Below, one piece after another: positions 40,250 to 56,045 of a stretch of 64,000 bases of DNA. The first letter of the stretch is position 1; the number at the start of each line of letters is the position of its first letter. This DNA comes from Escherichia phage vB_EcoS_MM-1: the sequence record PV577657; one strand, 5' to 3'. The position numbers and the translations under genes were made by a program. The notes under the pieces were generated by a model. It was not told where the DNA came from. It saw nothing but the letters and a program-made list of their open reading frames with translations, and ran no database searches.

Positions 40250-40691
40250 AATAGCCTCGTTTCATCAATTTAAAAATATATTATACAGATAACTTAGTAA
40301 ATTAGCAAATACATTTTTAAATTGTGAAACTAGTAAACCGATAAACAGCCTAGAGGCGCCACAGGCCATATCTTATGAGCCATGTACCTTTGATCTAGGG
40401 TTTGAATCATCAACGAATACTTTGCATCTTTTAGCTTTAGAAGTTTAGAAGTTTGAGTTCTTTAAACTTTTCAGCTTTCATACTTAAATGTTGATCTTTG
40501 AAGTTGTGTCGGTAATATCAACGACGCTTTGTTCTTACGTGTCAGCTTAAAAGGCTGGTGTAATAAACATAATCTCCAATAGATTATACTTTATAGTATG
40601 GTCAGCGGTCTTATTTAACCTCGTATTTCAACCGCTGCTGCGAGGTAAGATGCTTGGGCTTTCGTCTACCGATTTACTAGCTTTTAAATTA

Positions 40692-41330
40692 TTACTCTAC
40701 TTCAATGAAGGTAGAGGCGTTAGACTCGGACAGAACAAAATCAACATTTGTTGCAAAGTCCTGGTATTCCTCGTCATGCTGCTTAATCAGCTTCTCCAGT
40801 TCCAGCGGATCAATCAAGAATGGAGTATTCTTGAGTTCCAGCAGGTTGAGCTGCATTTTAACTTCATCTTCGGAAGTTTTCTTATCGCGGGTAGCCATGC
40901 TATCCTGCAAACGCTCATATTTAGCATCAAACTGTGCTTTCTGCGTATTAAACTTAACCGTGGCGGCATGGAACTGCTTACGCATGTTAGCCAGCAGTTG
41001 GGCTTTAAGTTCCATAGAACGCTTAGCTTCAATTGCTTCCGCAACAGTCATTTTACGAGAGCCTATCTCAACGATCGTTTCTGCATTGCTCTTAATCAGA
41101 GCAGCTTTGATACGATCACGCTGGGACATCATATCCAGCAGGGACTGGAAATCTGTCTTAATACGCTCAGATAAATCATCTACTTCGATTGCAGCGCCAA
41201 CTACAACCTTATTTTTATCCTTACCTTCACCAACAGCGATCAGAAGCTGTTGTTCAGTAGCTTTACGGATTTTAGCTTCCAGAGATTTGATAGTTGCCAG
41301 AGCGCGAGTTTTAGAGATACGAGTAGTCAT
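40692..41330 (-). CDS. coiled-coil protein
   Basis: 212 aa, heptad-rich. Confidence 0.5.
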   Translation of the reverse strand: MTTRISKTRALATIKSLEAKIRKATEQQLLIAVGEGKDKNKVVVGAAIEVDDLSERIKTDFQSLLDMMSQRDRIKAALIKSNAETIVEIGSRKMTVAEAIEAKRSMELKAQLLANMRKQFHAATVKFNTQKAQFDAKYERLQDSMATRDKKTSEDEVKMQLNLLELKNTPFLIDPLELEKLIKQHDEEYQDFATNVDFVLSESNASTFIEVE

Positions 41331-41383
41331 TATTTGCTTCCTTATATGAAGTTTGAGATTTGAATTTGTTTAAAGTTGGTCTA

Positions 41384-41566
41384 TTACAGACCAATTGCCA
41401 GCAGAGTGCGCAGAACAGTATCGTTACTGTTATCAATTTTAGGATTAGCACGATTTAGCAGATCAAAGATTTTCTGGATACCTGATTGACGTTCAGCCAT
41501 ACGACGGATACCCAGATTACGAGTAGCTTTCTTACCATTTTTACGAACATTTTTAGATACTGGCAT
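41384..41566 (-). CDS. small basic protein
   Basis: 60 aa. Confidence 0.35.
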   Translation of the reverse strand: MPVSKNVRKNGKKATRNLGIRRMAERQSGIQKIFDLLNRANPKIDNSNDTVLRTLLAIGL

Positions 41567-41636
41567 ATTTGTTTTCCTTTTATTGTTTTCTCAAATTTAT
41601 GAATATATTATACAGAATTTTGGAGCCGGAAGCAAA

Positions 41637-42338
41637 TCAAATTTTCATTTTTTCGATCATAGCTGCAACACAATAGCTCTCAACTAAGGCATCAAATGCT
41701 GGGTCGTGCTTAACCGGATAGATCCCATAACGAATGGTGTCCATCTTCTCCATTTTAGCTATTGCCCAGCTAATACCTTCGGTCTCTAGAGCTTTATAAC
41801 TGTATCCAGCTTGCATCCAGAGGTTACGAAGAGATCGAACATTACCCAAATTCCAGAATTTCCACGGAACTACCTCTTCATTGGTTCCAGCATGGAACGT
41901 GTTTGCAGAGTAGATAGTCATATCAAACTCTGGACCGTTTCCATAATACAAAGCATTTTCGCCTAAAGCCAACTCCATAATATTTTTAGCCATAGAGTAG
42001 GCAGCATAGTTAGAGCCGAGTTTATTAGTGCAATGATGTTTACCATTTTGGAAGGCAATCAGTTTTGGATTACGTTCCTTCATAGCTTCCATAATGTGGA
42101 TAGCAGACGGGCTATTTTTAGCTTGATCCATCCAGAATGCTAGAGTAGATGCTGTAACTTTGGCACCAGAATTAAGTTGATCTTGTACATCCAAAGTAAC
42201 AAATATTAGATCAGGGTCTTTATCAATTCCATGCATAGCCACAAAAGCGAAAGAAGGCATTGCGATATGAGTAGTACCACAATCTCCTGGAGTTCCCAGA
42301 GATTCAATATCTAGCATACCAAATGGTTTTACTTTCAT
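41637..42338 (-). CDS. DEDDh-type 3'-5' exonuclease-like protein
   Basis: 'MLDIESLG' (Exo I D-x-E), 'HDPAFD' (H-x4-D). Confidence 0.5.
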   Translation of the reverse strand: MKVKPFGMLDIESLGTPGDCGTTHIAMPSFAFVAMHGIDKDPDLIFVTLDVQDQLNSGAKVTASTLAFWMDQAKNSPSAIHIMEAMKERNPKLIAFQNGKHHCTNKLGSNYAAYSMAKNIMELALGENALYYGNGPEFDMTIYSANTFHAGTNEEVVPWKFWNLGNVRSLRNLWMQAGYSYKALETEGISWAIAKMEKMDTIRYGIYPVKHDPAFDALVESYCVAAMIEKMKI

Positions 42339-42366
42339 AACTTATCCTTTATTGTGTAGAAAACTA

Positions 42367-42603
42367 TTAAAGAGACAGCTCTTTAATAGACTCCCACTTC
42401 TTGGGGTCTTTAAAACCAGGAAGCATATCCTCACTGACATCCCAGTTCTCTTCCATAGAGAAGTCGGGCCACTCATTCCAGCTACCTTCCAGCTCTTCAT
42501 AACAGGTATCCATTACCTCATGACTAGAAAGTCGTGTATAATCTCTAGCGGACTTATGAGTGCTAGCACGGTTAAAATCATTCTTTGCTACAAAATTACG
42601 CAT
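42367..42603 (-). CDS. hypothetical acidic protein
   Basis: 78 aa. Confidence 0.4.
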   Translation of the reverse strand: MRNFVAKNDFNRASTHKSARDYTRLSSHEVMDTCYEELEGSWNEWPDFSMEENWDVSEDMLPGFKDPKKWESIKELSL

Positions 42604-42644
42604 AGTTTCTCCAAATAAGAGGGGCTTTCGCCCCCTGATTTAAA

Positions 42645-42860
42645 TCATTTGCCCAGCAGTTTAAGGATATTTTCCATAATAGTTTGGGCAGATTTTTCAC
42701 TCTTGTTGGTTTCAGTCAACTTTAAAGCGAGTTCTTCCTGCTGTTTCTGAATATCAGCAGCGATTTTTTGATCAGCCTCAATACGAGCTTGAAGCTCATC
42801 AGTGATAGTGGTAAAGGAAGCAACGATTTCAGTAACGGAACGTGGTTTCTTAGAGAACAT
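42645..42860 (-). CDS. hypothetical protein
   Basis: 71 aa; hairpin downstream. Confidence 0.4.
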   Translation of the reverse strand: MFSKKPRSVTEIVASFTTITDELQARIEADQKIAADIQKQQEELALKLTETNKSEKSAQTIMENILKLLGK

Positions 42861-42923
42861 AAAAGTATCCTTGATTAGTTAGAGAATCAGTAGATTGTAG
42901 GGGCTTCTGCCCCTATTTATCTA

Positions 42924-43439
42924 TTACTTCGCTTTACGTTTGCGAGCTGGTTTAGCAGATTTACGAGCGGAATCACCCGTGAACTTAATGCCTACGCCGT
43001 AACACAGAGCACGAACATTATCTTTACTATACTCTACGCCAAAGATATTTGGCTTAACAGAACCAAACTGTCCACGAGTATCACGCAATACATCTGCTGT
43101 TGGTTTACGCTTCTGGTTAACTGCCTTCTCATAGTCTTTCATAGACATACCATTACGAGAGAACAATTCAGCCCCAGCGTTGAAGCTCAGGGAAACTGGG
43201 ACAGATTTGTGGCCGTAATTTTCTACATACATAACCATTTTGTAGGATTTACGGGTGGCATTTTTAGCTTTAGGCTTCTGACGAATCGGAGCCGGATTAT
43301 TCAGTGCTTGCGCAGCCTGAGCATCAGTAGGATGCTTACGCAGGTGACGTTCCAGACGAGCTTTGCGATTAGCCTCAGTCTTCGGGAAAGTTTTAACTGC
43401 CGGAGCTGCTTGAGTTTTTGCGTTTTTCTGCTTAGCCAT
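42924..43439 (-). CDS. basic protein, possibly nucleic-acid binding
   Basis: 171 aa, Lys/Arg-rich termini. Confidence 0.5.
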   Translation of the reverse strand: MAKQKNAKTQAAPAVKTFPKTEANRKARLERHLRKHPTDAQAAQALNNPAPIRQKPKAKNATRKSYKMVMYVENYGHKSVPVSLSFNAGAELFSRNGMSMKDYEKAVNQKRKPTADVLRDTRGQFGSVKPNIFGVEYSKDNVRALCYGVGIKFTGDSARKSAKPARKRKAK

Positions 43440-43514
43440 TATTTGTTTTCCTTTTTGTTTATCAATTTATGAAGTATATTATACGAGAATTTGAAGCGTT
43501 TAGCAAATGAATTT

Positions 43515-43964
43515 TTAATTTATTAACTGTAAGCTTCTTTTAATTTCAGACCTTACTTGCATCAAAAGGACTCCTAAAGTATTATCCCCGATGCCTCGGC
43601 AAACACCCCAATATGTATCTCCCCAGGTATTTCCTTCGATCAAAGTTGCATTTTCTGTTGCTAACAGTTTATCTCTTAAATCAGGAATTGCAAACTTTAA
43701 TCGTAAAAGCTCTAGCATTACATCATCTTTTACTTTATCCCAGTCAGAGCGTAGGGTTAATTTACGTCCTATACGTTTAGCAACTCCTGCATTTAGGGAG
43801 CGAAGTACATGAGCTACATCATCTTTTTGGTCGGATTTCATAGCCTGAAAAGCATGTTCTACAGTATCAGCATGCCATATCTCATTTAGATATTCGAAAG
43901 TAATTGGTGATAAATAAAAGTTAGATAAGAAACTATAAGTACCTTTAAATTCAGTAATCTTCAT
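43515..43964 (-). CDS. NADAR (YbiA-like) domain protein
   Basis: 'SFLSNFY', 'EHAFQAMK', 'LELLRLKF', 'DTYWG', 'GDNTLGVLLMQVR' align with the YbiA/NADAR pattern. Confidence 0.6.
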   Translation of the reverse strand: MKITEFKGTYSFLSNFYLSPITFEYLNEIWHADTVEHAFQAMKSDQKDDVAHVLRSLNAGVAKRIGRKLTLRSDWDKVKDDVMLELLRLKFAIPDLRDKLLATENATLIEGNTWGDTYWGVCRGIGDNTLGVLLMQVRSEIKRSLQLIN

Positions 43965-44245
43965 TTTTTACGCCCCGCATCTTTAGCCTCCTCGGCTGTA
44001 TAGATATACTGATAAGCCCCTTTGGAGTAGGCTGGAGCAGTACACATTTTCTTACGCTCAATCTCTTCTTGAGCTTTTCTTTCGCGTTCCGCTAATTCTT
44101 CGTCCAAATAAACTAAACGTTGTTCTGGAGGAGGTGGAAGACGTGTTTCTGGCTCGCCAATATTAGCCTTTCTTATTTGACGAGGTGATTGTGCACGTTT
44201 TCTCAATGGTTTAAATCCTAATGAATTTGAGTTATAGATCCGCAT
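43961..44245 (-). CDS. hypothetical protein
   Basis: 94 aa. Confidence 0.45.
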   Translation of the reverse strand: MRIYNSNSLGFKPLRKRAQSPRQIRKANIGEPETRLPPPPEQRLVYLDEELAERERKAQEEIERKKMCTAPAYSKGAYQYIYTAEEAKDAGRKK

Positions 44246-44322
44246 AAAGCCCTCCTCACTTTCAATACGAATATTATACTAAATTATAGGGCTTTAAGCA
44301 AGAGAATTTTTTAATTTATTTA

Positions 44323-44799
44323 TCACATCTCAGCCATTTCAGCTTCAGTAATAACTGTATTACATAAGGCGTCTACAGCTTCATTACCACTAATACCAGA
44401 GTGCCCTTTAACCTTAATAAAGGTAGGATTAGTATTATGAAAGTTGATATACTGTTGTGTTAATTTAAATGCTTCCTGCCAAAGTTCTAGATTAAGAGGA
44501 ACTTCACCATCTGCTTTCTTCCAGCCTTTCCTTTGCCAAGAAAACATCCAACTTTCCATGCCATTTTTGCAATAAGCAGAGTCAGTATAGATAGCAATTG
44601 GTCTATTATCTTTTTTAACAGACCAACGTAGAGCTTCTACAATAGCTGTGAGTTCCATCTCATTATTTGTAGTTTTAGGATTATAACCAGATTTAGAACC
44701 TAAACGATCGTCGTTATCATCATAGACAATAAAACCCCAAGCACCCGGACCTGGGTTAGACTTACAAGCACCATCTGTATAAATGTGGAAAACCGACAT
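44323..44799 (-). CDS. rnh: ribonuclease H
   Basis: 'IYTDGAC...GPGAWG' N-terminus; start moved to the ATG after GGGAGG RBS. Confidence 0.7.
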   Translation of the reverse strand: MSVFHIYTDGACKSNPGPGAWGFIVYDDNDDRLGSKSGYNPKTTNNEMELTAIVEALRWSVKKDNRPIAIYTDSAYCKNGMESWMFSWQRKGWKKADGEVPLNLELWQEAFKLTQQYINFHNTNPTFIKVKGHSGISGNEAVDALCNTVITEAEMAEM

Positions 44800-45080
44800 T
44801 ATACCTCCCAACTAATTTTAAGACCCATGTCTACAAAGGCGGCTTCTCGGTAGTATTGTGAGAGATGATACCCCTTATCCGATAAGGTTTTTAGTACTGA
44901 TTTAGCTGCTCCTGGCATTTCTCTAGGATTATATAGCCACCTAGCGTAAGGATTATCTCGAATAATTACTTCTGTATTTCCAGACTTAGCAGCTTCTACA
45001 ATCTTTTCTTCTATAAACTTTAGAAATGCGGGTACTTCTGTTAATCCTGCAAGTTCTTGGGCTTCTTTGGCTGAAATCAT
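44799..45080 (-). CDS. hypothetical protein
   Basis: 93 aa. Confidence 0.45.
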   Translation of the reverse strand: MISAKEAQELAGLTEVPAFLKFIEEKIVEAAKSGNTEVIIRDNPYARWLYNPREMPGAAKSVLKTLSDKGYHLSQYYREAAFVDMGLKISWEV

Positions 45081-45280
45081 GGCTTTTCACCTTCTGCTAC
45101 ACTTCTGGTTTTTGGTGGGATGGGAGGGTTAGGTTTTATAGCCGCTAATTCCCTATCTAAGAATTCCTCTATTGCTCTATCTACAAAGTAGTCATAGGGT
45201 AAATGATAATGTTCTGATAGAGTAAGAAGTTTGTGCTCTTGGCTTTCTGTTAAATAAACTTTCTTTCTAAAGAGTCCCAT
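45077..45280 (-). CDS. hypothetical protein
   Basis: 67 aa. Confidence 0.4.
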   Translation of the reverse strand: MGLFRKKVYLTESQEHKLLTLSEHYHLPYDYFVDRAIEEFLDRELAAIKPNPPIPPKTRSVAEGEKP

Positions 45281-45374
45281 ATGTGTATCTCCAATTTATA
45301 AAATATATTATATTTAAATTTCACTAAATAAGCAAATGAAATTTAAATATAATAGCCCCGAAGGGCTATTTAAA

Positions 45375-46229
45375 TTACACAGTGAATGGATATGCAATAG
45401 CAGGATGGTGTTCGTAACCACGAACAGTAAAATCATCCTTATTTACCCAGGTCAATACATCCTCCAGAGTTCGGATATTTGGATTGATTTCTAGAGTAGG
45501 AGGTGCAAAGGGTTCACGATCAAATTGCTTATGCTCCATCAAAACATTATACTGATCCTCATAGATATGAAGATTGATAATCTTCTGGCGTGCAATCCCT
45601 GGTTTAAGGCCTGTAATCTGTGCCATTAATGCTAGAAGCGTATAGCACTGAACCATGTTAAATACTTGGCCTAACAGGAAGTCATTAGATCTCTGGAAAG
45701 AGTTCAGATATAATGTATCTCCCAAAATAGAGAACTGATGAGTATGCATACATGGACGTAAGCAACCCTTTGAGAACTCCCCCGGATTCCAGAAGGTTAG
45801 AATTTCCCCACGATCATCAATGCCCTTTTTCAGATTATGATAAATCTTGGCTAGTTGGTCAAACATAAGACCATCGGAATTAGTCCACTGACGTCCTTGA
45901 ACACCATAGACTCGTCCCATATCATCCTCACCTTTACGGTATGGATTGTCTAGCCAAGCTAAGTTTTCATTTGCATTAGCATTCCATGTGTTAACACCAA
46001 TAGCGCGGAATTGTGCTGCTGAATCATACCCACGTAGATACCCAATCATTTCCATTATTGCTTGTTTTGCAAACGCCTTACGAGTAGTAATAAGTGGGAA
46101 TTCACCTGCACCTACGTTAAAAGTAAAATCTGCATCAATAATGGTGAGGCAACGAACCCCTGTTCTGGGATTCGTTACCCACTGACCTTCTGATAGAATA
46201 CGTTTTCCAACTTCTATATACTGATCCAT
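45375..46229 (-). CDS. thyA: thymidylate synthase
   Basis: 284 aa; N-terminus and C-terminal 'NLHIYEDQ' region align with ThyA. Confidence 0.8.
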
Positions 46230-46762
46230 TAATAAGTAACCAATTCCTGTACAAATCGCAGGCTGTTATCACTGTTTGCGCCAGTTGCGTAAACTAAACG
46301 AGTAGATTCATAGTTGTAATCTAGAATCGTATTATCCAGATATACATCTGCCTCTAGTTTTTGATTACTAAAGATTGTGGATACAAAAGCACTTTCAATA
46401 TGACCATATTGATACATTTCTAGAAGAAGGTTAGCACCACCTAGAACTACTGTCTGCTGATCTTTCAGAAATGTAGGTAAAGCATCCCCAATCTTAGAAA
46501 TTGGGGTGTAAATATCATGTGTAATATCATCTGGCAGTGGACGATCAGCACGAATAAATAGGTCAGAAGCTCCAATCATACGTTCTCTAACGGCGTATGG
46601 AAGAGCTAAATAAGTACCCGCACCAATGATGATGTTATCTGGATTCAACACGTCCAGTTGAGAATAGAAAGCATCTAGTTCTTCTTTGAAGGAACCCCAT
46701 GGAAGTTTACCGCGGAGGCCGAACTCCCCATTCGGCCCAACTGCATACATTGCTGTAATCAT
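46229..46762 (-). CDS. frd: dihydrofolate reductase
   Basis: 177 aa; 'GLRGKLPW' motif; overlaps thyA start. Confidence 0.7.
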
Positions 46763-48010: not shown

Positions 48011-50341
48011 TTAAATAGTACAACCGCCTGATGCACAACCAGCTGCTTCTTCTCCAGCACCACCACCATTTGCGGTGTTGAAGTTAGCATAATACCAAGT
48101 TTTCCACCCGTATTTAACAGCAGTCATGAAATCACGAACTACTACTGGGCCAGGAATAATTTCATTCTCAAACTTGGTGTAGTCGTAGTACATATTAGTA
48201 CTAACAGACTGGCTGAAGAATTTCTGCATAGTTGCTACCCATTTGATCCACTCGATACGATCTACATCATAAGCCAATTTATAGCTCATTAACGTTTCCC
48301 AATCGGTTGCACCTGGAGCAATTGCAATTACTTTATTTACTGCACTACCCTTGATAGATACAATCTTACGAGGTGGTTCGATAGAGTTAGTAACACCTAA
48401 CAGAACAGAAGAACTTTCTCCCGGCATCTGAGCAGTCAGAACAGAGTTACGCATACCATATTTCAGAATATCTGCACGCAGAGACTCCCAGTCCATTTCT
48501 AGACCTACGGATACCAGCTCATCAACAGTTTTCTTGTACGTGTCGATTACCAGAATTCCTTTAGATGGTTTAGTACGATCAAACCACTCACATGCACCCT
48601 GTTCCTTAGCCAGGCGTACAGAGGCTTTATGCAGGAAGTAAGACAGTTTTTCAGCCTCACGGTGGATCCAGTTACGAGCTTCAATACCTTCGTAAGCCAG
48701 ACCTTCTGCTGCCATTGCACCTGCTGCGTTCATTAGGCCAATACCGACATTACGACGTTTCTTGGCCGTATATTCCATAGTTGGGAACGGATAATCCTGA
48801 ATTTCAATAATTGTATCAACAAACTTCAGAAGGATGTAGCAAGTTTTTTCCCACTCAGCCAGAGATTCCATGCGTCCAAGTACAACACCACCTAAGTTAC
48901 ACAGAGATACTTCACCAATATCCTCCGGCTTCATTTGATCAAGCTGCTCTTTTGTCTTATACAGCTCTGTGATATGATGGAACGGGCGAGTAGGCTGAGT
49001 AATTTCAACACAAAGGTTTGTCATACGGATCGGATCAAGGAAATTACCGTGACGATTAGATTCCCCGATGTGATGAGCATACATACGTCCTGTTTCCATT
49101 CGGATACGTAGCCAAGTATCTAGAATTTCTTTTGCAGAGACTTTAGGAGCTGCTGGAACTGTTTTTCCTTCATGGTCGATCTTTGTAAGAGATGCCACAC
49201 GTTTCTCCGCTGCCACGTAGATTTCTTCAAATTTAGCCTCGTCATCACTATAAAACGCTTCATGAACTTCTGGAGCATAGAAGTATGACATTAGCGTAAT
49301 ATCTTCATTTTTCAGATAACGTTTTAACAAAAGATTGTTGAAGCTCAGAGAATAATCCATCTTATCGATTTTATTCTCATCTGTAGCACGTTGTTGCTTA
49401 ACCTGCATCAATTGAATGATTTCAGGATCGAAATACGGATAAGACACTGTAGCAGAACCACCACGAGTTTGCTGAGTATTGGCCTTTACTGAGCGGTCAA
49501 TGTGTCGATAATATGGCAGTTTTCCGGAATGCGGGAATGCCCCATTTCGCACCGGATCAGCAATTGATCGGCTTTCAAGATGATACCCGATTCCCGCTCT
49601 GGCTGCGACCATTTTGAAGACGATGTGCTCGGCGGTGTCGATTGAATCCAACGTGTCAGTGGAATCCACGAGGCAGCAACTAGCAAATCCACGGTCACTA
49701 GAGCGCAGGCCAACCAGTGGCGGCGTAGGAACGTTGATTTTGTGGAGCGACATTGCGTTGTAGAGGTCGATTGCATCTAAAATTGTCCAATTAGGTTGAG
49801 ATAACATCGCCATTGCCATACCCATGTAGGCAAACTGCGGGGTTTCATAAATTTCACCAGTGGCTATATTACGACGGGAATACTTATCAAAGAACTGCTT
49901 CAGCCCACCACTAGTAAAAAGACGGTCACGATCATGGTCGATAACCTGATTCAGAGCTTCAAATTGCTCATCGGTAATCCATGCACTCATATCTTCCCAT
50001 GCACCTACACTAACCATGTGGTCATGGAAGAAGCGTAGAGAAGGTGGTTCGAAAGAATCATAAAGACGTTTACGCATTTGCGCAAGACGTAATTCCTTTG
50101 CTGGCACATCGTATGCTGGGTTATCTTTGATAAGACTTTCAGCAGCTTTAATTAATGCGTCCATCAGAGTGTCGGAATCTACAACCCCTTTAGGTAGAGT
50201 TTTTTGAGCAGCCATAGTAATGGCTGACCAGCTTACATCAACTGTTTTGCAACCATACTCTGCCCAACCATTGAGTTTTTCAGGAGCAAAGTCTTCTACA
50301 GTACCGTCACGTTTAATTACTTTTTCAATGCGATGGCTCAT
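48011..50341 (-). CDS. nrdA: ribonucleotide reductase class I large subunit
   Basis: starts 'MSHRIEKVIKRDGT' like NrdA; track's 35-aa N-terminal extension rejected because it spans a terminator hairpin. Confidence 0.8.
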   Translation of the reverse strand: MSHRIEKVIKRDGTVEDFAPEKLNGWAEYGCKTVDVSWSAITMAAQKTLPKGVVDSDTLMDALIKAAESLIKDNPAYDVPAKELRLAQMRKRLYDSFEPPSLRFFHDHMVSVGAWEDMSAWITDEQFEALNQVIDHDRDRLFTSGGLKQFFDKYSRRNIATGEIYETPQFAYMGMAMAMLSQPNWTILDAIDLYNAMSLHKINVPTPPLVGLRSSDRGFASCCLVDSTDTLDSIDTAEHIVFKMVAARAGIGYHLESRSIADPVRNGAFPHSGKLPYYRHIDRSVKANTQQTRGGSATVSYPYFDPEIIQLMQVKQQRATDENKIDKMDYSLSFNNLLLKRYLKNEDITLMSYFYAPEVHEAFYSDDEAKFEEIYVAAEKRVASLTKIDHEGKTVPAAPKVSAKEILDTWLRIRMETGRMYAHHIGESNRHGNFLDPIRMTNLCVEITQPTRPFHHITELYKTKEQLDQMKPEDIGEVSLCNLGGVVLGRMESLAEWEKTCYILLKFVDTIIEIQDYPFPTMEYTAKKRRNVGIGLMNAAGAMAAEGLAYEGIEARNWIHREAEKLSYFLHKASVRLAKEQGACEWFDRTKPSKGILVIDTYKKTVDELVSVGLEMDWESLRADILKYGMRNSVLTAQMPGESSSVLLGVTNSIEPPRKIVSIKGSAVNKVIAIAPGATDWETLMSYKLAYDVDRIEWIKWVATMQKFFSQSVSTNMYYDYTKFENEIIPGPVVVRDFMTAVKYGWKTWYYANFNTANGGGAGEEAAGCASGGCTI

Positions 50342-54364: not shown

Positions 54365-54554
54365 GGGTTTAAACGCCGCTTTGGAAAACGCATTAATGCA
54401 GCACTGGGAAACTGGCTATAAGGATGGTGTTGAATCCTGCGCTACTATGCTAGAAGTTATTGCTAATACCTTAATGGAGAAAGGCAATAAAGAATTAGCT
54501 GAGCTATTAGACAGTATTGGGCAAAACTTCAGAGAACAGGTGAAAAATGCGTAG
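54333..54554 (+). CDS. hypothetical protein
   Basis: 73 aa. Confidence 0.4.
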   Translation: MAFSKPMLPDKGLNAALENALMQHWETGYKDGVESCATMLEVIANTLMEKGNKELAELLDSIGQNFREQVKNA

Positions 54555-55383
54555 ATTAATTATTATTAGCGGTGCAGGTTTGAGTGTTGAAAGTGGTGTA
54601 CGAGCTTTTCGTACTGATACTGCTAGTGGTAAAGCATTGTGGGATGACTATGATCTAGAAGAAGTATGTAATATTCATGCCTTTCGTGGTAATTTTTATC
54701 ATAAAACCCACATGTTTTACAACAAGCGTCGTGAAGAGCTAAAAACTGTTGAACCCAATCTTGCGCATTTGCGTATTGGTGAATGGTATAAACAATATCC
54801 AGGTCAAGTAGTAAACTTGACTACCAACGTTGATGACCTTATTGAGCGTGCTGGCGTCCCACATAGTGACATTCTGCACATTCACGGATATTTAAAAGAG
54901 GTTGTTGTAGCTGATAGCTACAATAGTAGCAATAAACGGATTATTGATGTAGGATACAATTCTATTGATCCAGATGATTATAAATGGGTTAAACCTAATG
55001 TAATCTTCTTTGGAGAGCATGCTCCTGCATACGCAGAAATGTATAATGTTTTTGATGGTATTACCAGTCAAGATATGATCATTGTGGTTGGTTGCTCTAA
55101 CCAAGTAATTAACTTCTACTGGGAATTATTTCCTGTTCTTAATTTGACTGCTGCGAAACTTATGGTTGTTAACTACTATGATAGTGCCCTCGCAGCGGAA
55201 CCGGTCTATCAAGGTATGACTCGTAGTGAGATGTACCAGCTGGAGGAACGCGGTATCCCTTACTGGAGTAAAGGTGCGGTAGATGCTTTCAGTGACCCTG
55301 ATTTTATTGCTCGTGTAGAAGCTCATTTAGAGGGTAGACCTTATGTGTCGAGAAGCAAGAGAAACAGGTATGTCCATAGTTAA
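54547..55383 (+). CDS. Sir2-family (sirtuin-like) protein without Zn-ribbon
   Basis: 'GAGLSVESGVRAFR', 'TTNVDDLIERAG', 'HIHG'; no CxxC...CxxC pair. Confidence 0.65.
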   Translation: MRRLIIISGAGLSVESGVRAFRTDTASGKALWDDYDLEEVCNIHAFRGNFYHKTHMFYNKRREELKTVEPNLAHLRIGEWYKQYPGQVVNLTTNVDDLIERAGVPHSDILHIHGYLKEVVVADSYNSSNKRIIDVGYNSIDPDDYKWVKPNVIFFGEHAPAYAEMYNVFDGITSQDMIIVVGCSNQVINFYWELFPVLNLTAAKLMVVNYYDSALAAEPVYQGMTRSEMYQLEERGIPYWSKGAVDAFSDPDFIARVEAHLEGRPYVSRSKRNRYVHS

Positions 55384-55552
55384 ATCTGTATATACACATC
55401 CCGACGATATATTTGTATGGGCAGATGGTAGTTGGTGCTATCGCTGTGAGCTGTGGGAGATGGACTATAAATCCGATGACTATGGTGTTATATATGTTGA
55501 TACGGTTGAGTATGATACGTTCTTAGAAAGGAACAAAAATGGAAATAAGTAA
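55343..55552 (+). CDS. hypothetical protein
   Basis: 69 aa; start uncertain. Confidence 0.35.
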   Translation: MCREARETGMSIVKSVYTHPDDIFVWADGSWCYRCELWEMDYKSDDYGVIYVDTVEYDTFLERNKNGNK

Positions 55553-56045
55553 TACTCCAATTATTTTTCTAGATATTGATGGGGTGCTCAATTCGAGCAT
55601 CTCCCACCATCATGCACCTGATGACGAAAAGATTTTCTTTGGAAGTGACTGGGTTTTCAAGCCGCTTCTCAAGGCTTTTCAGGACTTTATTCGTCCTTCT
55701 CCAATAATGATTGTTGGAGTATCATCTTGGTTCTCTGTCAGAAATGAGATGGAGAACGTTCAGATTATGACCGGATTAGGTCTTATCGATCGTTTTCTTG
55801 GTACAACGGATTTTACTGGGGGTGGGTTATCTAGGGGTAATTCTGTCCTTCGCTTCGTTGAAAAGCATAAGCTCAAACATTGGTGTGTTCTGGATGACGC
55901 TGGTGCTATGATGTATCAGTATCCAACGGTTATAGTCAACGGTAGAACTGGAATAAATCTTCAAGATTTAATGGCTGTTAGCTATATGTTAGAGTTTAGT
56001 CCAGATCTTGAAATGTGTAAATCCTTACAACAATTTAAGGTGTAA
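55539..56045 (+). CDS. HAD-superfamily hydrolase-like protein
   Basis: motif I 'FLDIDGVLN', later 'VLDDAG'. Confidence 0.5.
   Translation: MEISNTPIIFLDIDGVLNSSISHHHAPDDEKIFFGSDWVFKPLLKAFQDFIRPSPIMIVGVSSWFSVRNEMENVQIMTGLGLIDRFLGTTDFTGGGLSRGNSVLRFVEKHKLKHWCVLDDAGAMMYQYPTVIVNGRTGINLQDLMAVSYMLEFSPDLEMCKSLQQFKV

Follow-up and report, generated by a model that had tools for sequence, protein, structure and literature searches.

DarT1 modifies guanine with ADP-ribose at N2, and proteins of the NADAR superfamily hydrolyse that bond (PMC11543638). Three types have been distinguished by a residue on the last beta-strand, with Glu marking the YbiA family (sensu de Souza & Aravind), Asp the DarT-linked BC4488 family, and His the T4-type phage NADARs (PMC11543638). 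In Phytophthora nicotianae NADAR (PnNADAR), ADP-ribose is contacted by E43, K50, K75, R79, W89, R93, E125, D130, and W133 (Schuller et al., PMC11543638), and the equivalents of E43, K50, and E125 are required for guanine de-ADP-ribosylation and antitoxin function (PMC11543638). Escherichia coli YbiA gave no protection against DarT1 in vivo (PMC11125620). Among phage proteins, the closest described system is AdfN^Bas32 from IrisVonRoten, which is phage Bas32 of the BASEL collection (PMC8594841). Johannesman et al. (Nat Commun 2025, PMC11825919) report that AdfN^Bas32 protects uninfected E. coli from the toxicity of DarT1. With AdfN^Bas32, RB69, T5, and Bas25 again formed plaques at full titre on DarTG1 hosts, while T5 was not rescued from the thymidine-modifying DarTG2; all of these phenotypes were obtained in vivo by ectopic expression (PMC11825919). 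T5 itself is reported to be strongly restricted by DarTG1.

The DNA analysed here, referred to as the window, is a stretch of 64,000 nucleotides from Escherichia phage vB_EcoS_MM-1 (PV577657), and it carries a gene of this superfamily (Table 1). Its product is very probably an "orphan antitoxin" of the AdfN type, a lone glycohydrolase with the NADAR fold that counters the guanine ADP-ribosylation of DNA by DarT1. Family, fold, conserved active-site residues, near-identity and synteny with a tested protein, and the absence of an adjacent toxin are the observations on which this reading is based. We infer that the protein, which differs from the tested one at two positions (I65 and T9), behaves like AdfN^Bas32, shows early expression, and is required by this phage on DarTG1 hosts.

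Table 1. Features at the NADAR locus (positions in the window).
Feature	Position	Strand	Details
adfN-type NADAR gene	43515..43964	minus	149-aa ORF, ATG start, TAA stop
94-aa gene, homolog of T5.090	43961..44245	minus	phrog_4593; function unassigned; from ORF list and PHROG
Probable early promoter of the two-gene unit	44273..44301	minus	-35 TTGCTT (44301-44296), 17-nt spacer, -10 TATAAT (44278-44273)
Promoter-like site of the DUF7022 gene (42924-43439)	43478..43506	minus	TTGCTA-17-TATAAT, 10/12 matches
Segment without T5 counterpart	43517..44006		490 bp; NADAR gene and 3' end of the upstream gene; 46 unrelated bp in T5

An earlier note, made from the sequence alone, had described the ORF as NADAR/YbiA-like, and both its exact coordinates and its family were confirmed. 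The NADAR/DUF1768 profile search that the note had proposed gave a near full-length match to Pfam PF08719 (80.8 bits, E=1.8e-22; gathering cutoff 35.1 bits), which spans residues 9-142 of the ORF and positions 9-163 of the 163 in the profile. The ORF also matches phrog_1017 (8.8e-45), and the top matches in a sequence search of the PDB were E. coli YbiA (2b3w, 2.4e-15) and PnNADAR (8bau, 2e-07), the latter crystallised with ADP-ribose. The alignment with the family sets in at residue 3, which confirms the start codon. Two short plus-strand ORFs (73 and 55 aa) lie inside the gene and are antisense within this strongly supported reading frame. The base composition of the gene gives no sign of recent foreign origin, as its GC of 0.351 and GC3 of 0.24 resemble those of its neighbours (0.372 and 0.258 for rnh), with the GC slightly lower than the average of 0.392 for the window.

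An AlphaFold2 model of the protein, built from an alignment of the protein and its relatives (113 sequences), reached a mean pLDDT of 97.4 and a pTM of 0.91. Compared with the PDB, the model matched E. coli YbiA 2b3w best (TM 0.81, E 3.2e-10), followed by PnNADAR with ADP-ribose, 8bau (TM 0.75, E 9.1e-07), and these two were the only significant fold matches. The NADAR of G. lovleyi DarG1, 8bat, ranked third (TM 0.53, E 0.36), and beyond these three NADAR structures every match in the fold search had E>0.9 and was regarded as noise. The three best matches are thus the three solved NADARs, and the YbiA-like alpha+beta fold is present in the model. As modelled, the protein opens directly in the core fold, without the basic N-terminal extension of DarT1-linked NADARs.

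The protein is identical to bas32_0066 of IrisVonRoten (YP_013435443.1) at 147 of 149 residues (99%), and the two are equal in length. A scan of the complete Bas32 genome, covering all stop-to-stop frames of at least 50 codons with a clade HMM, YbiA, and T4 gp30.3 as queries, found one NADAR ORF only (E=9e-65), the next match having an E of about 1. Because Bas32 has this single NADAR ORF, bas32_0066 must be the AdfN^Bas32 of Johannesman et al. (Nat Commun 2025, PMC11825919). The ortholog bas33_0070 of HildyBeyeler (Bas33) is likewise identical at 147 of 149 residues, and the gene order rnh, T5.090-like gene, NADAR, DUF7022 is common to the window, Bas32, and Bas33. AdfN^Bas32 therefore shares with the protein in the window its position between the T5.090-like and DUF7022 genes, its length, its phage genus, and all but two of its residues. 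The RefSeq proteins of Bas32 and Bas33 differ from each other at two residues (A9/T9 and E104/K104), although PMC11825919 calls them identical.

The two differences from AdfN^Bas32 are T9 and I65 in place of A9 and R65. Position 9 is a hypervariable column of the family alignment. I65 lies in the AKRxGR phosphate-binding helix, between K63 and R67, where both Bas32 and Bas33 have R65. Across the family this column holds L in 46 sequences, A in 14, R in 13, I in 12, K in 10, and M in 8, with M in YbiA and L in PnNADAR; among T5-like orthologs, R65 is the commoner form. Both the place of I65 in the helix and the prevalence of R65 weigh against equivalence of the two alleles. The exact sequence of the protein in the window recurs on nine contigs under the name "NADAR family protein." Judged from this variation, the I65/T9 allele is expected to keep the function of AdfN^Bas32. 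The earlier note had further proposed that the NADAR acts as a phage counter-defence against DarT-type guanine ADP-ribosylation, and this is supported by the 147/149 identity to a protein that neutralised DarT1 and rescued three phages (PMC11825919). The only correction that the proposal needs concerns novelty, as the anti-DarT1 function is already published for the 99%-identical ortholog, and at least one GenBank record already labels an ortholog as an "antitoxin-like enzyme."

The conserved NADAR/YbiA residue blocks that the note had pointed out are borne out by the alignment of 113 sequences, in which 12 positions are invariant, far beyond chance: S14, N15, E36, Q40, K43, K90, E110, D116, W119, G120, N128, and R138. 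K63 and W75 are almost invariant. The nine ADP-ribose-contacting residues of PnNADAR map to E36, K43, K63, R67, W75, K79, E110, D116, and W119, so that all nine positions are filled, with K79 being a Lys where PnNADAR has an Arg (R93). The mapping was taken from the printed HMMER alignments; once the numbering of the 8bau chain is offset by two, all nine residues that Schuller et al. name are recovered. For E36 and K43, where the HMMER alignment to 8bau is locally shifted, the assignment relies on the YbiA alignment and on the SEH/QxFxxxK motif that the protein has in common with YbiA. One T5-like NADAR allele, found on a 109-kb contig, is 117 aa long and has lost 32 residues in frame between two "KDDV" repeats (the counterpart of residues 50-81); with K63, R67, and W75 deleted, its product is probably inactive.

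The residue aligned with E125 of YbiA and E125 of PnNADAR is E110, which makes the protein a Glu-type NADAR. It shares 40% identity with E. coli YbiA over 136 aa, and by diagnostic residue and pairwise similarity taken together it is classed as Glu-type and YbiA-like. This call differs slightly from the published tree, as described, in which AdfN^Bas32 falls outside the YbiA-like group and has two archaeal NADARs as its closest neighbours (PMC11825919); as the classification here uses residue and pairwise criteria, the difference is a nuance only. YbiA resembles the phage protein as its best structural match, in the Glu at the diagnostic position, and in having a bare core without extensions. 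It differs in being encoded by a chromosomal LexA-operon gene rather than a phage accessory gene, and in giving no protection against DarT1 in vivo (PMC11125620), whereas AdfN^Bas32 protects (PMC11825919). Since YbiA does not protect, subfamily alone would not predict anti-DarT1 activity.

Some GenBank labels ("GTP cyclohydrolase II," "N-glycosidase," "swarming motility protein") imply instead that the protein is a housekeeping YbiA-like N-glycosidase that clears reactive intermediates of the riboflavin pathway. The identity to YbiA and a score of 69.6 bits with TIGR02464, the family of riboflavin-intermediate N-glycosidases, speak for such a role, yet this score lies just below the curated cutoff of 73.7 and far from the 169.5 bits of E. 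coli YbiA itself, and no riboflavin (rib) genes are found nearby. An accessory cassette in a lytic phage also fits conflict rather than metabolism, and the phenotype demonstrated for AdfN^Bas32 is related to defence (PMC11825919). A riboflavin role is thus very improbable, and the TIGR02464 assignment was rejected on its score and on the lack of a riboflavin or housekeeping context. The NCBIfam model DS32_2 ("NADAR family anti-phage protein") gave 45 bits against a cutoff of 240, and the protein is not a member of that family.

DarG1 proteins of the BC4488 family (G. lovleyi 8bat, E. coli C7) share the core fold with the phage NADAR. They also share the reaction and target reported for AdfN^Bas32, guanine-N2 ADP-ribose on DNA, and neutralise the same toxin. 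In contrast to the phage NADAR, the DarG1 gene adjoins darT1, the diagnostic residue is Asp rather than Glu110, and DarG1 carries a basic N-terminal beta1-beta2-alpha1 extension that the phage NADAR is missing; the structural match is weak (8bat, above). Membership of the DarG1 group was rejected on these grounds. AdfN^T4 (gp30.3) of T-even phages belongs to the NADAR superfamily and has an anti-DarTG1 role as well, though it is His-type (PMC11543638), whereas the phage NADAR studied here has Glu110. AdfN^T4 does not neutralise DarT1 outside T-even infection, whereas AdfN^Bas32 does (PMC11825919). No pairwise similarity to T4 gp30.3 was detectable with BLASTP (E=1.3), and together with the Glu in place of His this led to rejection of T4 gp30.3-type membership. 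T4-type and Bas32-type AdfN were acquired independently.

The neighbouring genes all lie on the minus strand and are ordered, in the direction of transcription, as ribonucleotide reductase, dihydrofolate reductase, thymidylate synthase, two small ORFs, RNase H, the 94-aa gene, NADAR, DUF7022, and an exonuclease. The ATG of the NADAR gene overlaps the TGA of the upstream 94-aa gene in an ATGA at 43964-43961. This overlap suggests co-transcription and translational coupling, so the two genes are probably expressed as one unit. A predicted early promoter for this unit, preceded by an A-rich stretch, sits within the 77-bp spacer that separates the RNase H gene from the unit, and it is followed by a Shine-Dalgarno sequence GAGGAGG (44257-44251) and the ATG of the 94-aa gene at 44245. 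In T5, a promoter is annotated at the homologous place (T5 46337-46411, corresponding to 44247-44321 of the window). A simple promoter scan missed this site because TTGCTT matches the consensus of the -35 at only three of six positions. Classical T5 early promoters such as PN25 have TTGCTT as their -35 hexamer. Immediately downstream of the NADAR stop codon comes the promoter-like site of the DUF7022 gene, which is conserved with T5 promoter P-H 207, its equivalent, and forms the 3' border of the cassette. The same simple scan found no terminator-like site between the genes, and an Rfam search of both strands of 41000-46000 found no RNA family. The earlier note had called the NADAR an early gene; to this can be added the rnh-thy-frd-nrd block in which the gene lies and the T5-type sigma-70 promoter at the annotated T5 position. 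Position and promoter sequence make early expression from a sigma-70 T5-type promoter a reasonable expectation, although the timing itself is deduced.

Among the NADAR gene and its two immediate neighbours, neither Pfam nor PADLOC gave a hit to DarT or another toxin, and the NADAR is therefore an orphan. PADLOC returned only a weak match, to the candidate family PDC-M42C (1.3e-07), and no DarG model. With RNase H, the T5.090-like gene, DUF7022, and the exonuclease as its neighbours, the NADAR gene has no adjacent ADP-ribosyltransferase. A NAD-consuming enzyme of the phage could in principle supply a substrate from further away, with the NADAR partnering a phage Sir2-family protein and clearing its ADP-ribosyl products. 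A Sir2-family gene (54547-55383, plus; PF02146, 8.1e-25) and an RNA-repair HAD gene do lie about 10.6 kb away, but on the opposite strand and in different transcription units, and T5 has Sir2 without a NADAR, so the two are not an obligate pair. Such a partnership is the least probable of the readings considered. The HAD gene (55539-56045, plus) carries a HAD_SAK_2 "Swiss Army Knife RNA repair" domain (4e-20), and T5 has this gene along with Sir2; the two add further functions related to NAD/ADP-ribose or to RNA repair.

The best relatives in cellular genomes share 44-54% identity with the protein, and 79 of the 80 best loci are bacterial, the remaining one being from an Asgard archaeon. Gene neighbourhoods were surveyed with Pfam for 60 immediate same-strand neighbours around these 80 loci, considering the 25 commonest of 46 families. 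LPD11 (8 loci), NAD-dependent DNA ligase, NAD synthase, RNA ligase, ADP-ribosylglycohydrolase, and NUDIX/NrtR were the most frequent, and nicotinamidase-like genes also occur. No ADP-ribosyltransferase was found among these 25 commonest of the 46 families. It has been proposed for phage NADARs generally, on contextual grounds, that they degrade small soluble immune signals or toxins derived from ADP-ribose, such as cADPR-type messengers, rather than act on macromolecular adducts (Iyer, Burroughs and Aravind, PMC9503650). The proximity of bacterial relatives to genes of NAD and ADP-ribose metabolism (NAD synthase, NAD-dependent ligase, NUDIX/NrtR, ADP-ribosylglycohydrolase, nicotinamidase-like) agrees with this proposal. 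However, the near-identical AdfN^Bas32 directly neutralises a DNA-modifying toxin in uninfected cells (PMC11825919), and a role in small-signal degradation is unlikely here.

The NADAR gene is an accessory cassette of T5-like phages. The 1.5 kb around it match Escherichia phage vB_EcoS_MM-2 (PV577658.1), a T5-like Tequintavirus of the Markadamsvirinae (Demerecviridae), with 100% identity, and Bas32 belongs to the same genus. Megablast detected the gene in 95 phage records, with identities of 94-100%. A 1.5-kb query that includes the flanks matches 434 records, only 94 of which cover at least 80% of the query, and the upstream 94-aa gene, found in 540 records, is a core gene of T5-like phages. 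When positions 42900-44350 of the window were compared with T5 by blastn, homology extended over 42900-43516 (89%) and 44007-44350 (92%) with nothing between. T5 is thus without the NADAR gene, which agrees with its reported restriction by DarTG1. The T5.090-like gene encodes 94 aa in phages that have the NADAR gene and 92 aa in those that lack it, its last ~15 codons lying within the indel. One record labels a neighbouring gene as "DksA C4-type domain-containing protein."

Only two phage records fall in the band of 60-80% identity to the NADAR of the window. Salmonella phage vB_SenS_UTK0009, an Epseptimavirus (OQ359889.1), encodes a 149-aa NADAR (49333-49782, minus) that is 60% identical to it. 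The UTK0009 gene lies between rnh and the T5.090-like gene, that is, on the opposite side of the T5.090-like gene from the NADAR of the window, and this position suggests that it was inserted independently and that the locus is a hot spot.

In the proposed mechanism, infection of a DarTG1 host would lead DarT1 to place ADP-ribose on the guanine N2 amino group of the phage DNA, which would block replication. The phage NADAR would be made early from the sigma-70 promoter, as the second cistron of the two-gene unit, and would bind the ADP-ribose. In this bound state, K43, K63, R67, W75, K79, D116, and W119 are predicted to contact the pyrophosphate, with E36 and E110 flanking the distal ribose. 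Hydrolysis of the bond between ribose C1'' and guanine N2 would then release ADP-ribose and return the DNA to its unmodified state, allowing replication to proceed. Thymidine-ADP-ribose would not be removed, and DarTG2 would not be countered.

The substrate range of the enzyme may be broader than this, with the product of DarT1 as one target of several alongside cytidine-ADP-ribose, RNA-linked ADP-ribose, and the products of other ADP-ribosylating defences or toxins. Such a range would add to the anti-DarT1 function rather than replace it. The protein is Glu-type (E110) with the bare core of YbiA, and YbiA-type and general NADARs removed cytidine-ADP-ribose from DNA and RNA, while DarG1s and the T4 NADAR did not (PMC12945103). 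Because YbiA-type NADARs act on cytidine-ADP-ribose (PMC12945103) and YbiA fails against DarT1 in vivo (PMC11125620), the range of the T5-like enzyme could exceed the products of DarT1. AdfN^Bas32 moreover acts without any phage-specific factor, on the DNA of E. coli and of unrelated phages alike (PMC11825919). Against this, none of the NADAR papers cited here names a cytidine-ADP-ribosylating defence of E. coli, and on balance of these points the broader range is a tentative proposal. An extension of it is speculative to a similar degree: T5-like AdfN, which unlike YbiA is anti-DarT1 in vivo, might share the wider base specificity (cytidine-ADP-ribose and RNA) and thus be a broad-spectrum eraser of nucleic-acid ADP-ribosylation, and the rnh-to-T5.089 interval of Markadamsvirinae might be an insertion hot spot for such erasers. 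The hot spot is suggested because, in an Epseptimavirus, the 60%-identical NADAR flanks the T5.090-like gene on its opposite side.

For the anti-DarT1 function, the presence or absence of the 450-bp cassette should predict the growth of T5-like phages on DarTG1 strains, including therapeutic candidates against E. coli or Salmonella. The locus raises no new question beyond those of the NADAR literature of 2023-2026. Its value lies mainly in annotation, as the many records named "swarming motility protein," "GTP cyclohydrolase II," or "hypothetical protein" should be renamed as AdfN-type anti-DarTG1 ADP-ribosylglycohydrolases. The GenBank labels of the orthologs are inconsistent, namely "swarming motility protein (YbiA)," "GTP cyclohydrolase II," "N-glycosidase," "DUF1768 domain-containing protein," "NADAR family protein," "antitoxin-like enzyme," and "hypothetical protein." One protein cluster at 90% identity mixes 149-aa NADARs with the sequence-unrelated 92/94-aa T5.090-like proteins; this looks like a clustering artefact, perhaps from gene calls fused across the ATGA overlap. 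A few NADAR-carrying fragments (2-3.5 kb) are filed as "Listeria phage" and are probably contaminant or mis-assigned contigs. Further along the window, a minus-strand ORF (40692-41330) matches phrog_1491 and T5.085 ("tail fiber protein") and is overlapped by plus-strand ORFs at 40650-41174 and 40705-41349. The MM-2 record annotates a plus-strand ORF there (record 40542-41066) as the CDS, which looks like a strand mis-call.
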